Below, in pieces: positions 1,946 through 8,836 of a DNA stretch of 64,000 bases. The translations under genes and the position numbers were made by a program. The DNA comes from an uncultured Gammaproteobacteria bacterium. Lineage in GTDB: Bacteria; Patescibacteriota; Microgenomatia; CAYFQP01. The DNA is taken from contig CAYFQP010000003.1 in the NCBI GenBank assembly GCA_964345375.1, positions 8,875 through 72,874 of the forward strand, written 5' to 3'. Each line of letters opens with the position of its first letter. Position 1 is the stretch's first letter. Below the pieces are notes generated by a model. The model did no database searches. It was not told the origin of the DNA and saw nothing but the letters and a program-made list of their open reading frames with translations.

Positions 1946-2353
1946 ATGAGCAAACTTTATCAAGACACAAAAAGGTGGGTAGAAGAAAATTGCTTTAACG
2001 CCAAACATCTAGTCCGGAGTGCTTATTGGGTTAAAAAACTTGAGCCTAAAGCTAACAAGGCCGTTCTCATTGCTGCTCTCACCCATGATGTTGACCGAGG
2101 TCTTTCCAGGCTAGAAAATCATGAATTTGGGGGCACTTATGAGCAAGATTTAGTTAGAGACGCTGACAGCATTTCTTTTCTAGAAGTTGCTCCTCCAGCC
2201 TTCATTAAATTTATTCCCCAGAAAAGAACCAAAGACGAAGTCCGAATAAAGTTCAAGTTCATGTACGAAAGAATTACTCTTCCTAAGGCTAAAAAACTAG
2301 CCAAGTCTTTCCTTAAAAAGGCCATGGCTGAGCTTGAGAAAGTTAAGGAATAA
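1946..2353 (+). CDS. hypothetical protein
   Basis: 135-aa ORF, no confident domain (weak HD-like ALTHDVDR). Confidence 0.4.
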   Translation: MSKLYQDTKRWVEENCFNAKHLVRSAYWVKKLEPKANKAVLIAALTHDVDRGLSRLENHEFGGTYEQDLVRDADSISFLEVAPPAFIKFIPQKRTKDEVRIKFKFMYERITLPKAKKLAKSFLKKAMAELEKVKE

Positions 2354-2445
2354 AGAAAGCTCCCGAGGTGATTCTCAAAATAAGAAGATTGTCACCTTAC
2401 GATGTGTTCTGACTTACATCTTTATAGATTGATATAGCAGTCCTT

Positions 2446-3204
2446 TTAACTGGCGAGCCAGCCGCCGTCAACATAAAGAACCGCGCCGGTAATATAGTCT
2501 GCCTCATCAGAAGCCAAGAAAGCAGCCGCCGCCCCAATATCTTCAGGTTTCCCCACTCGACCTTTGGGAATTCTTGCCATTAAGCCTTGCTTTGTTTGCT
2601 CATCACTAAGCATGTCTTTGGTCATGTCAGTATCAATTACTCCAGGAGCAATGGCATTAACATTAATACCTTTCTTACCCAAGTCTAGAGCCAAATTCTC
2701 AGTCAAAGCCACCACACCACCTTTTGAAGCCGTATAATGAGAAACTCTCGAAAAACCTATACCCACTCCACCAGAAGCAATTGAGGCAATATTAATAATT
2801 TTAGCACCCGAACCCATTAGCTTCACTGCCTGCTGAGAACATAAAAACTGGCCTTTAAGATTAACATCTATCACCTGATCCCATTGCTCTTCAGCTAATT
2901 GCTCAAAATCAGCAAACTGGACAATACCAGCATTATTGACGAGAATGTCCAGCTTCCCCCACTGATTTTTAACATATTCGAACATCTTGGCTACTTGTTG
3001 CGAATTAGAAACATCCGCGGCCACGGCCACGGACTGCCTCCCCATTTTCTTGATTTCTTCGACCACTTTATCTGCCTCTGCTTTATTCGAGCGGTAATTA
3101 ATAATCACATCTGCTCCCTGAAGAGCTAAGGCTAAGGCAATCCCCCGGCCAATCCCCCTTGAAGCACCGGTGACCAAGGCTTTTTTACCTTCTAAAGAAA
3201 ACAT
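2446..3204 (-). CDS. SDR family oxidoreductase (FabG-like 3-oxoacyl-ACP reductase / glucose dehydrogenase type)
   Basis: TGASRGIGRGIA Rossmann motif, NNAG, YTASKGG catalytic Tyr-x3-Lys. Confidence 0.85.
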   Translation of the reverse strand: MFSLEGKKALVTGASRGIGRGIALALALQGADVIINYRSNKAEADKVVEEIKKMGRQSVAVAADVSNSQQVAKMFEYVKNQWGKLDILVNNAGIVQFADFEQLAEEQWDQVIDVNLKGQFLCSQQAVKLMGSGAKIINIASIASGGVGIGFSRVSHYTASKGGVVALTENLALDLGKKGINVNAIAPGVIDTDMTKDMLSDEQTKQGLMARIPKGRVGKPEDIGAAAAFLASDEADYITGAVLYVDGGWLAS

Positions 3205-3270
3205 TTCTTCACCCCCTTTCGAAACTGATTCTATACTACCAGATTATTAAATAAGAAGCCAAGAAGTAAA

Positions 3271-5496
3271 TTATAAAGAAGTCCGCTTTAGCCTTAATGA
3301 ATTTAGAACTACCGAAAGCGAAGAAAAGGCCATTGCTCCTGAAGCAAAGATCGGGCTTAAGAGAATTCCGAAAAAAGGATAAAGAATGCCGGCGGCAACA
3401 GGAATCAAGGCAGAATTATAGAAAAAAGCCCAAAACAGATTCTGTCTGATCGTCCGCATCGTCAACTTAGAAAGTTTAATCGCTTCAACTAAATCCATCA
3501 AATCTGACTTCATTAAAGTAATCCCGGCTGACTCCATCGCCACATCAGTGCCTGCCCCCATAGCAATACCCACATTAGAGGCTGCCAAAGCGGGAGCATC
3601 ATTGATGCCATCACCGACCATAGAAACAATTTTCCCTTGTTTTTTGAGCTCTTTAACCTTCCCCTCTTTCGCAGCCGGAACCACCTCAGCCATAATTCTT
3701 TCCTTGCTAATCCTAACCTTCTTACCAATTGCCTCAGCTGTTCGAGGATTGTCTCCTGTTATGAGCCAAACATCAAGTCCCATTTTTTGTAAAACTCTGA
3801 CTGCTTTCTTAGAATTTTTCTTAAGAGTGTCCGCCACTCCAATGAGGCCAATAACTTTTTTATTGAGAGTCATTAAGATGGCTGTTTTACCCTCATCTTC
3901 TAGTCTCCTCATCCCCATTTCTGCCTCCTTAGAAATCTTAATCTTAAACTGACTCATTAAGGCCCGGTTGCCCTTAATAATCACCTCTTTACCTATATTT
4001 GCTCTAATTCCCTTACCAATTATGGCCTGAAAGTTTTTAGGCTCAATTAATTTAAGTTTTAATTTCTTGGCTTGCTCAACCACTGCCTGGCCTAAAGGAT
4101 GTTCGCTTCTTAGTTCAGCACTGGCTGCCAATCTTAGCAGCTCATTCTTGCTTTCATCTCCCAAACTAATAACGTCTGTCACCTCAGGCTCACCCTTGGT
4201 TAAAGTCCCGGTTTTATCTAAAACAATTGCTTCTATTTTATGAGTAGTCTCTAAGGCAGCCGCGTCTTTGACCAAAATACCTCGCTCAGCTCCCTTACCT
4301 GTGCCCACCATGATTGCTGTTGGCGTTGCCAAGCCCAAAGCACAAGGGCAGGCCACAATTAAAACCGCCACAAAAACAACCAGAGCAAAAGTTAAGCTCT
4401 GGCCACCAAGCAACAACCAAAAACCAGCCGATAAAACAGCAATAAAAATCACTGCCGGAACAAAATAGGAAGCCACCAGATCGGCCAAACGTTGGATTGG
4501 CGCTTTTGAACCCTGAGCTTCTTCAACTAACTTAATAATTTGGGCCAAAACCGTCTCTTTGCCTACTTTAGTAGCTTTGAACTTAAATGAGCCAGATTTA
4601 TTAATCGTTGCTCCAATTACCTGATCGCCCTTCCTCTTCTCCACCGGCATACTTTCCCCTGTCACTAATGACTCGTCAACCGCAGACTGACCCTCAATAA
4701 TCACGCCATCTACTGGAATTTTCTCACCTGGTCGAACAATAATAATCTCGCTAACCTTAACCTGGTCTATGGGAATATCCTTTTCCTTACCATTTCGAAC
4801 CACTCGGGCTGTTTTCGGGCTTAAACCCATTAACTTTTTGATCGCCTCAGAGGCTTGCCCCTTTGCCCTTGCCTCTAAAAGCCTGCCTAACAATATTAGG
4901 GCAATAATGATAGCGGCGGTTTCAAAATAAACTTCAGGCTGGATACCAGTCGGAGTTAAAATTGCAGGGAAAAATGTAGCTATGGTTGAATATAAGTAAG
5001 CCGCTGAGGTGCCGACGGCAATCAAAGTATCCATGTTGGCGGAAAGATTTTTTAAACCCCGCCAGGTACCCTGGAAAAACTCTTTTCCTGCCCAAAAAAG
5101 GACTGGGGTTGTTAGGACAAACTGGGCTTCTGGAATCATTAATTTGCTCATCCCTCCAACCAGAACGATCGCGGCTAAAAGACCACTAATAAAGACTTTT
5201 CTCTTTAACTCTTTTATCTCTGCCTCTTTCATCATTACCGCATGATCATGATTTCCTATTTTCTCCATATTTTCTTCAGGTTTTTGGGTAGCAACAAGCT
5301 CGTACCCTACTTTTTTAACAATCTCCGCCAGCTTCTCTACATTTATTTTTTTCTCATTAAACTCAATTGTCACTTTTTCAGCGGCAAAATTAACTAGCGC
5401 TGACTTAACGCCATCTATTTCCCTCAACGCTTTCTCGATTGTGGCCGCACAGGTGACACAATGCATCCCTCTGAGAATAAAATTTTGCTTTTTCAT
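3271..5496 (-). CDS. copA: copper-translocating P1B-type ATPase
   Basis: N-terminal [18 protein letters not shown] transmembrane motif, [15 protein letters not shown]. Confidence 0.9.
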
Positions 5497-5506
5497 TGTT
5501 CTTCGA

Positions 5507-7063
5507 TTACCTTACATAGGGACAATTAGGGCGACCACAGCCTCCGCCACAGCCTCCGCCACAACTACATCCCCTTGCCCCTGAAGGTATCTCTTCACCA
5601 CTAGGAATAATCACTTCTCTCGCAGAACCTGATTCATCAACCACCTCAATTACTCCAGAAATCATCCCCATCCAACAACTGAACTTATATCGGCCAGGCT
5701 TTTGAGGAATAAACTCCTTGACGGCCAACTCTTGGTTTAAATCAATTTGGCCTGAAAATAGACCCTTAGAGACAATTGCGTTGGTGCAACCACTAACTCC
5801 TTTATTAGTTATCTCCCATCTTGCTGGTACGCCTGCCCGAATTTTAAATTCATTGGGTTCATAACCGTAAGCCAGAGCATCCATCTTTAGTACTTGTTTG
5901 CCGTTAATAACAGGGATAAGTCCATCTGTACGGATTTGGGTGCCTAAGAGGCTGGGCCTGAAATCGTTTAGGCTTGGCAGACCCAAAACATTCAACTGGG
6001 AATTAAAAGTATAAAGACCAAAAAATAAAACTAAAATTCCTGCAACTTTAAGGAATTTCTCTGACAAATGGGGTTTTGTTGTCAGTTTCAAACTGGAAAA
6101 ACCAATTGTCACTAACATTGGCAAGGTTCCTAAGGCAAAAAAGAATAAAATCAACATCCCTCTCACACTACTTCCTGAAGCTAAGGCTAATCCTTGGGCA
6201 GTAATCGCAAACCCACAAGGCAAAAAAAAGGTCAAGGCACCAATGGTAAATGGCATATAGCGACCCTTAAGATTTCTCTCATCAGCGACAAAGCGAGAGA
6301 TAGATTTAGGCATGATTATCTGGAATCTTTGGAAGCGCCTGATGCCTAGCATCTGAAGAGCGAGTAAAACCATCATCACCGAAACTCCAATCGCTAAAAG
6401 AGAAGTGCCCATTAAGGAAACTCTAAAAAGTGAGCCAATCGCTCCAAGAAATGCTCCCAAAACAGCAAAAGAGACTAGCCGACCAAGATTAAATAAAAGA
6501 TGAGGCTGGAATCTTATCAGATTAGGAGTACCGTGTTCGAAAATTTCTGCCCATTGTTTAGACATTGATAAAACAATTCCTCCTACTAAAGCTGCACAAC
6601 TAGAAATTCCAGCAATCAAGCCAAATAAAAAGAAGGCAGGAAGTGGAGAAATTGAGCTCACCACCACTCTTGAAGCAATTCCTGTCTGATTAAGGAAAAT
6701 AAAGCCGAAAAGCAATAATAAGGCAATCCCAAAGATCTGAAGATAGCGGAAAAAAAGAACTTTATTAATCATCAGTCCTCCCTCATCAAAAGAAAAAAGC
6801 GGCACTCTTTTCCCTTCCTTAACTTGTTTTTCAAAAAAGGTATAGCCTTCTTTCTGAAATTGCTTATTAAGTTCACTTATAGCTGGTTTTTCTCCTTCAT
6901 AATAAATAGATACCTGCTCTTTGCCCAGAGATGCTTCAACTGCTTCTATGCCCTTCCCCTTAAGAAGTCCTTTTTCAATTATCAGCTCACAGGAAGAGCA
7001 ATGCATTCCTTTTACATAATAAGTGATCTCTTTGAGGGAGGGTTTTTTATTTCTGTCAACCAT
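5507..7063 (-). CDS. heavy-metal-associated (HMA) domain fused to a polytopic permease (TauE/SafE or CcdA-like) with C-terminal cupredoxin-like domain and Cys/Gly-rich tail
   Basis: N-terminal [15 protein letters not shown]; about 8 TM helices; C-terminal beta-rich domain ([17 protein letters not shown]...[12 protein letters not shown]) and tail [16 protein letters not shown]. Confidence 0.45.
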
Positions 7064-7074
7064 TAATCAATAAG

Positions 7075-7620
7075 TTAAAAAAGATCAGCGGTCGCCTCAA
7101 CATCAGCCAGACCTATCACCAATCTTCCATTAGTTACTTCGACGTCTTTATCGATTGGTCGAGGATTACAACCACCTTTTTGGAGAGCAATCTGATCCTT
7201 AGAATACATCACTCGACAGTTTTCGCAACGAATTTGATCGCCAATCTGTTTAAACCCCTTTTGAGATTCGAAACAGACTTCGCAAGCATTAGCCGCCGCC
7301 CTATAAGTTCCATCCGAGGCCTTAACAATAAAAAGATAGATCGTCTTTCCTAGTCTTTCTGAATAATAATTAAAGGGGTGCAAATCGCCATCATTAACTT
7401 TTGATTCCTCTATATAGACTCTTTCCCCTTCTGCCTGAATCGTCTCTCCTTTTTCGCCCAAAAACTTCTCATTTTTTATTGGAGCAGCTGTCTGTCCTTT
7501 TTTACTACCAGTATTCATGTTAATCAGAACTAAACCAAAAACTCCGATGATCACTATTAAAAGGCCAATCGGAATAGCTGCCAACCATTTTTTATCAATT
7601 CGTAATTCATCTTTGCTCAT
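7075..7620 (-). CDS. membrane-anchored CxxC-pair protein (DUF2318-like)
   Basis: N-terminal TM helix; CEVCFES...CENC plus GGC; same operon as copA. Confidence 0.35.
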   Translation of the reverse strand: MSKDELRIDKKWLAAIPIGLLIVIIGVFGLVLINMNTGSKKGQTAAPIKNEKFLGEKGETIQAEGERVYIEESKVNDGDLHPFNYYSERLGKTIYLFIVKASDGTYRAAANACEVCFESQKGFKQIGDQIRCENCRVMYSKDQIALQKGGCNPRPIDKDVEVTNGRLVIGLADVEATADLF

Positions 7621-7973
7621 GGCAATTCTCCTCCATTACAAGCAGCCTTGCCTTGGCATAACCCTCTCTCACACTGTGGGCAAGGCTCTTTCCCTTGAAC
7701 AATCAAGTCGTCACAAGCACAAGTTCCAGCCTGATAATGATTCCATTGATTAGCTTCCATATAGCACATCGTGCAAGGAGGTTCAATACAACATTTATAG
7801 ACTCCCTCTCTCACTACCTCAGCTATTGCTTCGTCCCTTTCTTGGATAATTCTCTGCCATTTTTCGTTTGAGCTTAATTCATTAAAGTTCGGAGTTTTCT
7901 GGTATCGGAAAAATAAAAAACTAGCAAACCCGCCCATAAATAATAGAAGAATGGCAATGATTATTTTTTTCAT
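7617..7973 (-). CDS. cysteine-rich (13 Cys) membrane-anchored small protein, putative metal binding
   Basis: N-terminal TM; CCIEPPCTMCY, GTCACDD, PCPQCERGLCQGKAAC. Confidence 0.4.
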   Translation of the reverse strand: MKKIIIAILLLFMGGFASFLFFRYQKTPNFNELSSNEKWQRIIQERDEAIAEVVREGVYKCCIEPPCTMCYMEANQWNHYQAGTCACDDLIVQGKEPCPQCERGLCQGKAACNGGELP

Positions 7974-8236
7974 TAACTTTTCTCCTTAAAAACTTCGACA
8001 ATTTCCTGATAAACCCTTTTTCTTTCTTTTTTGTTTTTATTTGTTGCAACCCGGGCAACACAAGTATCTAAGTGATTTTTTAAAATCAGTTCATTAACTT
8101 TTTTAAGAGCGGCAATGACCGCCTGATTTTGACGAATAATATCAATGCAGTATTTCCCATCTTCAACCATTTTTAGGTTGGCTTTGAGGTGGCCAAGAAG
8201 ATAATTCATCCGGTTGATAACTTTTCTGTCAGCCAT
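7973..8236 (-). CDS. csoR: CsoR/RcnR-family metal-sensing transcriptional repressor (copper)
   Basis: DUF156-like helical protein with Cys (YCIDI) and His/Cys (HLDTC) ligand positions; start moved to MADRK ATG at 8236 because the upstream part of the track ORF is the promoter/operator. Confidence 0.7.
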   Translation of the reverse strand: MADRKVINRMNYLLGHLKANLKMVEDGKYCIDIIRQNQAVIAALKKVNELILKNHLDTCVARVATNKNKKERKRVYQEIVEVFKEKS

Positions 8237-8243
8237 GAGAAAA

Positions 8244-8272
8244 ATTCTAACCCCCCTAGGGGGGGTTGTCAA
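8244..8272 (-). promoter_or_regulatory. csoR promoter with operator: TTGACA-[ACCCCCCCTAGGGGGGT]-TAGAAT, transcript start ~7 nt before ATG
   Basis: Minus strand reads TTGACA, 17-nt spacer consisting of a C7-TA-G6 palindrome, TAGAAT, 7 nt, ATG. Confidence 0.65.
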
Positions 8273-8281
8273 GAGGTAATT

Positions 8282-8836
8282 TTAGACTAAAAATAAACTA
8301 AAAACAAAGAGGATTATAAACATTAAAAGCAAATAAAGAGCTTGAAAATTATCCGGAAGATGAATATTTACTTGCCAAAGCCAAGAATCCATCCCGCCTG
8401 TTTTGAGAAACTCGTCAAATTGACTAATTAAGGTCTGTAAGAATAAAACCAAGACTAAACCTTTCCCTAGTAAGCCTGCCGAAGAAGTCAAAACAAAGAA
8501 AACCGCGACCAAAAGGACAACCTGGAAGAGAACAGAATGGAAAATTAATCTTTTTCTTTCACCTTGCGTTTCAAAAAGGAGAGCTAAACTATAACGATAT
8601 TGTCCCTGCTGAAGATAGCGCTGTAAACGCTGAGGCGTGAATTCATGAGGATTTTGAAAAAAACAGTAAACCAAATGGTCTAAATCTAAAAGGAAGGCAC
8701 CGATAAAGCCTCCTGCCCAGAAACCTATCAATTGAAGTTTCTCTTGCCAATGAAGCAGGCTGAAAATTCCTAGAAAGATAACAGTGGGTATCAAACGCTT
8801 GAGAATCTCCCTCCTCATGCTTTTATAATAGCACAA
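8282..8836 (-). CDS. hypothetical polytopic membrane protein
   Basis: 184-aa ORF with about 5 TM segments. Confidence 0.45.
   Translation of the reverse strand: MCYYKSMRREILKRLIPTVIFLGIFSLLHWQEKLQLIGFWAGGFIGAFLLDLDHLVYCFFQNPHEFTPQRLQRYLQQGQYRYSLALLFETQGERKRLIFHSVLFQVVLLVAVFFVLTSSAGLLGKGLVLVLFLQTLISQFDEFLKTGGMDSWLWQVNIHLPDNFQALYLLLMFIILFVFSLFLV

Follow-up and report, generated by a model that had tools for sequence, protein, structure and literature searches.

In the usual picture of bacterial copper defence, a sensor, a chaperone in the cytoplasm and a P-type pump work together, and periplasmic helpers are known chiefly from Gram-negative bacteria. Copper tolerance has also been linked to CcdA, DsbD and ScsB. 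In CcdA and DsbD two essential cysteines sit in TM1 and TM4, and what is established for such proteins is the transfer of electrons across the membrane by thiol-disulfide exchange rather than the transport of metal.

A cupredoxin-type solution is represented by CupA and by the N-terminus of CopA in S. pneumoniae (PDB 4f2e, 4f2f). The binuclear Cu(I) ligands of CupA are Cys74, Cys111, Met113 and Met115 (PMC5646241; ligand roles also in PMC7558416), and published accounts have the protein act on copper in the cytoplasm (PMC5646241, PMC7558416), with a 2020 review limiting it to a few streptococci (PMC7558416). Its two cysteines reduce Cu(II), the source that re-reduces them being stated as unknown (PMC5646241). 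Proteins with a DUF2318 domain are found in the copper-dependent FetMP/Ftr iron-uptake clusters, and the Campylobacter DUF2318 protein FetA acts together with two thioredoxins (PMC10783030). A 2016 inference of the CsoR meta-regulon (PMC4938975) was the only relevant paper found on DsbD_2-type genes beside copA; the literature searched yielded neither a functional study of DsbD_2 (PF13386/COG2836) proteins alongside copA nor an experimental study of the fusion, the DUF2318 protein or the 10-Cys protein described here.

The locus under study lies in a 64,000-nt stretch of DNA, the window, and consists of a five-gene minus-strand operon in the order csoR, 10-Cys protein, DUF2318 protein, fusion and copA (Table 1). 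It shares with the Gram-positive CsoR-CopZ-CopA operons the C-H-C ligands of CsoR, a GC-rich palindrome as candidate operator, a CopA of the P1B type and an HMA domain where CopZ would be, but here a polytopic membrane protein with a predicted outward copper domain takes the place of CopZ or incorporates it, and two more membrane-anchored Cys proteins are inserted. The chaperone slot is filled by one membrane protein that appears CopZ-like inside and DsbD/CcdA-like in its core, with a CupA-type site on the predicted outer side. Like CcdA, DsbD and ScsB, this fusion has a 6-TM core with one invariant Cys each in TM1 and TM4 and a predicted extracytoplasmic C-terminal domain; unlike them, it carries a Cu(I)-type cupredoxin rather than a thioredoxin fold outside and a cytoplasmic HMA domain joined through an extra TM helix, and its electron transfer is putative.

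In contrast to the S. pneumoniae proteins, the cupredoxin is here the C-terminal module of a 7-TM protein, predicted to face outwards and followed by a Cys/Gly tail, while the partner CopA has an ordinary HMA domain instead of a cupredoxin at its N-terminus and the regulator is CsoR instead of CopY. As modelled, the outer domain is homologous to CupA and not its functional equivalent. Compared with Campylobacter FetA (DUF2318 + YHS) and the FtrABCD/FetMP-FetABCDEF clusters, the DUF2318 protein has a single TM segment and belongs to a copper-efflux operon, which contains no FTR1 permease, P19 protein or ABC transporter. The combination of an HMA domain with membrane-embedded Cys that might hand over a thiophilic metal recalls MerT/MerP, but the membrane fold differs and the HMA domain is predicted on the opposite membrane side from MerP.

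Table 1 Features of the copper operon, with positions in the window and, for domains, residues of the fusion
Feature	Position	Strand	Length or residues	Description
Operon promoter	8244..8272	-		TTGACA 8272-8267, 17-nt spacer, TAGAAT 8249-8244
Candidate CsoR-type operator	8250..8266	-		GC-rich palindrome ACCCCCCCTAGGGGGGT, filling the spacer between the -35 and -10 boxes
csoR	7973..8236	-	87 aa	Cu(I)-sensing repressor, from ATG 8236; listed ORF begins at TTG 8272
10-Cys protein	7617..7973	-	118 aa	N-terminal membrane anchor (TM segment 1-24), 10 cysteines
DUF2318/FtrD-like protein	7075..7620	-	181 aa	N-terminal membrane anchor
Fusion	5507..7063	-	518 aa	HMA, linker TM, DsbD_2 6-TM core, CupA-type cupredoxin domain, Cys/Gly tail
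HMA domain of fusion	6839..7024	-	aa 14-75	Motif GMHCSSC, predicted cytoplasmic
Membrane part of fusion	5987..6763	-	aa 101-359	Linker TM0 and 6-TM DsbD_2 core
CupA-type cupredoxin domain of fusion	5639..5908	-	aa 386-475	Cys426, Cys463-Trp-Met465-Gly-Met467; predicted extracytoplasmic
C-terminal tail of fusion	5510..5620	-	aa 482-518	Flexible, Cys/Gly-rich, five Cys
copA	3271..5496	-		Cu(I)-exporting P1B-type ATPase, single N-terminal HMA domain

Operon structure and regulation

As the original prediction had it, three ORFs lie between csoR and copA. All three are on the minus strand, and the motifs quoted from them (CCIEPPCTMCY, CPQCERGLCQGKAAC, the CEVC/CENC pairs and the C-terminal end of the fusion) are all present in the translations. 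The gene junctions of the operon are overlaps or gaps of at most 11 nt: the csoR stop codon overlaps the start of the 118-aa protein gene, whose own stop overlaps the start of the DUF2318 gene by 4 nt. Upstream of csoR stands the best sigma-70-like promoter match within positions 2300..8500, agreeing at 11 of 12 positions, and since an ORF started at the TTG would cover its own promoter, csoR most likely begins at the ATG. The palindrome ACCCCCCCTAGGGGGGT is what we take, from established knowledge of CsoR operators, to be the CsoR site. The closest related loci, of which the nearest shows 67-75% identity, retain the layout TTGACA-(A)C5-7 N2-4 G5-7(T)-TATAAT ahead of csoR. Across related loci, the pattern C4-8 N0-6 G4-8 occurs upstream of csoR in 12 of 92 cases, compared with 0.23% of background windows; the operators of more distant relatives presumably have shorter C/G tracts.

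CsoR scored 68.8 bits against PF02583 (Pfam cut-off 22.8) and matched the NCBIfam RicR-like model with an E-value of 1.3e-11. Cys30, His55 and Cys59 can be read in its sequence and match the C-H-C Cu(I) signature, with the 25/4 spacing of C36-H61-C65 in M. tuberculosis. CopA exceeded the NCBIfam cut-off for TIGR01511 (614 bits against 397), contains the Pfam domains E1-E2_ATPase, Hydrolase and HMA, and shows CPC (C383/C385) and DKTGT motifs in its translation. Sequence features support the five genes as one CsoR-repressed, copper-inducible efflux operon of a candidate-phyla-radiation bacterium.

Domains of the fusion and its companion proteins

The N-terminal HMA domain anticipated in the fusion was recognised by PF00403 (40.5 bits, cut-off 24.8), with C22 and C25 invariant in the alignment. 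Its PDB matches were to the N-terminal HMA domains of B. subtilis CopA and to CopZ chaperones, and a CopZ-like identity is supported. A MerTP or MerP identity was rejected, the NCBIfam scores being 36.6 bits against a cut-off of 180 and 25.4 against 92.55, in both cases over the HMA part only. No signal peptide was found at the N-terminus and the positive-inside rule holds, with loop K+R counts of 10.8 inside and 1.8 outside over all 43 aligned sequences. Versions without the HMA domain also lack TM0 and start directly at TM1, which fits an N-out/C-out orientation of the 6-TM core.

The core had been called a permease of about eight TM helices. The AF2 model (pLDDT 76.8) instead gives the fusion seven, one linker helix plus the 6-TM core, and the core belongs to the DsbD/CcdA-like family DsbD_2 (PF13386, 113.4 bits, cut-off 24.9, profile positions 1-199 of 199), with a weak match to NCBIfam DsbD (E 2.4e-4); many homologues of the fusion match DsbD_TM PF02683 too. 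In the model, TM1 of the core is broken at Cys156 (SSC) and TM4 at Cys283 (LPCG), and both cysteines remain invariant in Actinobacteria, Deinococcus and Clostridia, where identity falls to 28-32%. Searches of the PDB with the single sequence or an 11-sequence profile gave no match of the core to a solved structure, so its link to electron transfer rests on Pfam membership and Cys positions; the top structural matches of the AF2 model did not include CcdA or DsbD. Homologues are named sulfite exporter TauE/SafE at NCBI, a family absent from the Pfam and NCBIfam matches at E <= 0.1. Applied to the fusion, this label looks like a misnomer, and it hides the family in databases.

The prediction of a C-terminal cupredoxin domain holds and can be narrowed to the CupA type, with the Cu(I) ligands Cys...Cys-x-Met-x-Met intact. 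CupA was the best structural match of the outer domain, a cupredoxin beta-sandwich that also resembles CuA and FtrB/EfeO-type domains. Fusion residues C426 and C463/M465/M467 align to C74 and C111/M113/M115 of CupA with the same 37-residue spacing, and all four are invariant in the aligned homologues. The score against Cupredoxin_1 (PF13473) was 25.9 bits for a cut-off of 27, and precomputed Pfam annotation lists PF13473 for an identical protein. By predicted topology, this domain lies outside the membrane. The original prediction would have been given up for a core from an unrelated family without metal-binding residues or for a C-terminal domain without a cupredoxin fold, and neither was found. 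The tail that follows is flexible by the AF2 model (pLDDT <50); it carries two to five Cys in 42 of the 43 aligned fusion homologues, with C499, C501 and C509 conserved.

The assignment of the second protein as a DUF2318-like double-CxxC protein was confirmed by PF10080 (E 1.2e-24, 86.8 bits, cut-off 26.3, residues 75-181). Five Cys are invariant, two CxxC pairs (C113 and C116, C132 and C135) and a fifth (C151), and the CxxC region gave weak zinc-ribbon-like matches. The labels "Fe-S-containing protein" and "FtrD-like" are names only, no experimental basis for Fe-S binding having been found. Some relatives contain a thioredoxin-like insert with a CxxC motif, for which the Thioredoxin_4 and DSBA matches stayed below threshold. 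Others join an HMA domain to DUF2318 through one TM helix, and their existence means that an inside HMA domain and an outside Cys domain alone imply no conduit. Its place in this operon ties DUF2318 to copper handling.

For the 118-aa protein the cysteine count is 10, lower than the 13 first reported, and its motif is CCIxPPCTMCY...GTCACDD...PCPQC...C. It had no Pfam or NCBIfam match at E <= 0.1 and no PDB match, and identification as a metallothionein, Csp or PCYCGC (PF13798) protein was rejected for want of a profile match. Its 233 homologues are all named hypothetical, nine Cys are invariant in the family alignment, and the family amounts to only 100 representative clusters in 1.84 billion proteins. 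No Pfam family was assigned to the protein itself or to nine of ten distant relatives; one distant relative has a separate PCYCGC domain next to the shared domain, and one relative has a Met-rich linker of a kind typical of Cu(I) handling. The protein is, by its sequence and gene context, a member of a small Cys-rich family that has no model in the databases, Pfam included, and is tightly linked to csoR-fusion-copA-type operons. The AF2 model is confident for the TM helix and for helix 35-56, and metal binding is a conjecture because the Cys-rich part (pLDDT <50) has no usable model. None of the three operon proteins is a chance ORF: their homologues number from tens to thousands, and the Cys pattern is invariant in each case; for the fusion, at least 2953 homologues have the identical architecture.

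Distribution across lineages

The fusion architecture occurs in at least 551 species genomes, mostly as csoR-fusion-copA. This order is also the commonest among 81 related loci, and within its own lineage the arrangement is not the unusual one it was originally thought to be; the fusion adjoins copA in 69 of these loci and csoR in 57. Its carriers are hundreds of uncultured Patescibacteria species, uncultured Actinomycetota and one cultured Clostridium relative, while cultured Actinobacteria and Deinococcus have a split, HMA-less form. The gene linkage holds across phyla. In many non-streptococcal lineages the fusion is predicted to position a CupA-type site on the external side of the membrane. 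The HMA domain is either fused or encoded by a separate adjacent small gene. Versions of the system are present in Acetoanaerobium noterae and on several actinobacterial plasmids. Of the four annotated plasmid loci, two combine CcdA with a gene for a thiol reductase, either TlpA or peroxiredoxin, and another has TlpA alone; on a Tsukamurella plasmid, a DsbD_2-cupredoxin gene and an HMA gene are followed directly by merA.

Possible functions of the system

The reading we favour, tentatively and ahead of the others, is that CopA efflux is combined with an outward-facing layer of thiols that captures Cu(I) or reduces Cu(II) and that the DsbD-like core maintains in the reduced state. CopA pumps Cu(I) from the cytoplasm, and the HMA domain of the fusion could serve CopA as a docking site or work as a CopZ-like chaperone tethered to the membrane. 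On the external side of the membrane, Cu(I) would be bound, and Cu(II) possibly reduced, by the CupA-type domain and the Cys/Gly tail. The two intramembrane Cys of the core would pass reducing equivalents outwards from the cytoplasm, so that the outer thiol sites of the fusion and of the DUF2318 and 10-Cys proteins, the latter two being putative copper binders, would be kept reduced and copper-competent. The fused DsbD-type core is an obvious candidate electron source for re-reducing CupA-type cysteines.

A thiol-redox role is favoured by the thioredoxin-like inserts of DUF2318 relatives, by the thioredoxins acting with FetA and by the CcdA, TlpA and thioredoxin genes in neighbouring positions. 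Against an electron conduit counts the absence of an encoded thioredoxin-like partner from the 64,000-nt window, and HMA domains are not known to take part in electron transfer. The cytoplasmic action of S. pneumoniae CupA, unlike the outer location predicted here, counts against outward capture.

The original prediction of a Cu(I) relay from HMA domain to permease to cupredoxin survives in its HMA domain, its cupredoxin and its copper operon; its permease is not supported as such, the core being a member of DsbD_2, which makes a Cu(I) path through it one of two readings and, for an efflux operon, a thermodynamically awkward one. In revised form, Cu(I) or a different thiophilic ion, for instance Hg(II), would be handed between the CxxC of the HMA domain, Cys156/Cys283 and, outside, the tail together with the CupA-type site; the DsbD-fold core would serve as a novel type of metal carrier with a logic like that of MerP/MerT. 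Such translocation is, in our judgement, doubtful but deserving of attention. Soft-metal ligands are invariant at every station (C22/C25, C156, C283, C426, C463/M465/M467 and the tail Cys), and the HMA domain, fused or in an adjacent gene, provides Rosetta-stone evidence of functional coupling. The DsbD family has been grouped with metal-ion transporters in the LysE superfamily, which counts for the relay, and merA right after the Tsukamurella homologue and HMA gene is where an Hg(II) importer would be expected. The best NCBIfam match of the HMA domain is the MerTP fusion model, but it covers the HMA part only and falls far under the cut-off. A passive cation carrier would moreover be expected to run inwards under an inside-negative potential, and import would be odd in a CsoR-derepressed detoxification operon adjoining an ATP-driven exporter. 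The single-TM HMA-DUF2318 fusions follow the same inside/outside logic with no conduit, and metal transport by DsbD_2 proteins was not found in the literature searched.

More broadly, the DsbD-fold core might be a new copper machine, either a thiol-relay translocase moving Cu(I) from the inner HMA domain to the outer CupA-type site or a copper-gated electron conduit across the membrane that powers a Cu(I) trap or a cupric reductase outside the cell, with an undescribed family of membrane-anchored 9-10-Cys proteins assembling surface Cu-thiolate clusters. We regard this as unlikely; if true, this branch of copper homeostasis in bacteria would be widespread yet unstudied, and it would provide the electron source so far missing for copper reduction of the CupA type.

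It is improbable that the system, like DsbD/ScsB, repairs envelope disulfides during copper stress. In that case the core would reduce outward-facing partners that reverse the mis-oxidation of surface proteins catalysed by copper, with the cupredoxin, DUF2318 and 10-Cys domains as redox carriers and not copper binders. Membership of the core in DsbD_2, its two conserved TM Cys, the DUF2318 relatives with thioredoxin-like inserts and the CcdA, TlpA and thioredoxin genes close by in related metal islands all agree with such a function. So does the history of E. coli dsbD, first identified as the copper-tolerance gene cutA2, together with the need for DsbC under copper stress. However, the full CupA Cu(I) ligand set is kept, including two Met that would be useless in disulfide exchange, the Met-rich linker of one 10-Cys relative is typical of Cu(I) handling, and the HMA domain speaks for direct copper contact.

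Copper supply is very improbable, with CopA, the outer CupA-type domain and the DUF2318 and 10-Cys proteins loading copper into extracytoplasmic cuproproteins in the way that CcoI, SenC and PCuAC serve oxidases: it draws on the resemblance of the outer domain to CuA and FtrB/EfeO-type domains besides CupA and on DUF2318 in FetMP/Ftr clusters, but the operon and the neighbourhoods examined contain no cuproenzyme gene, and the CsoR-type operator and classic csoR-copA layout are those of detoxification.

Most related operons carry the fusion without the DUF2318 or 10-Cys protein. These two proteins are optional add-ons, and supplying them is therefore not the core role of the fusion. Where the 10-Cys protein is present, its partners recur: in 16 loci centred on it with at least 3 kb of flank, the fusion was found in 13, copA in 12 and DUF2318 in 11. 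A distant member of the 10-Cys family adjoins genes for CsoR, a DsbD_TM protein, a thioredoxin and a DUF411 protein.

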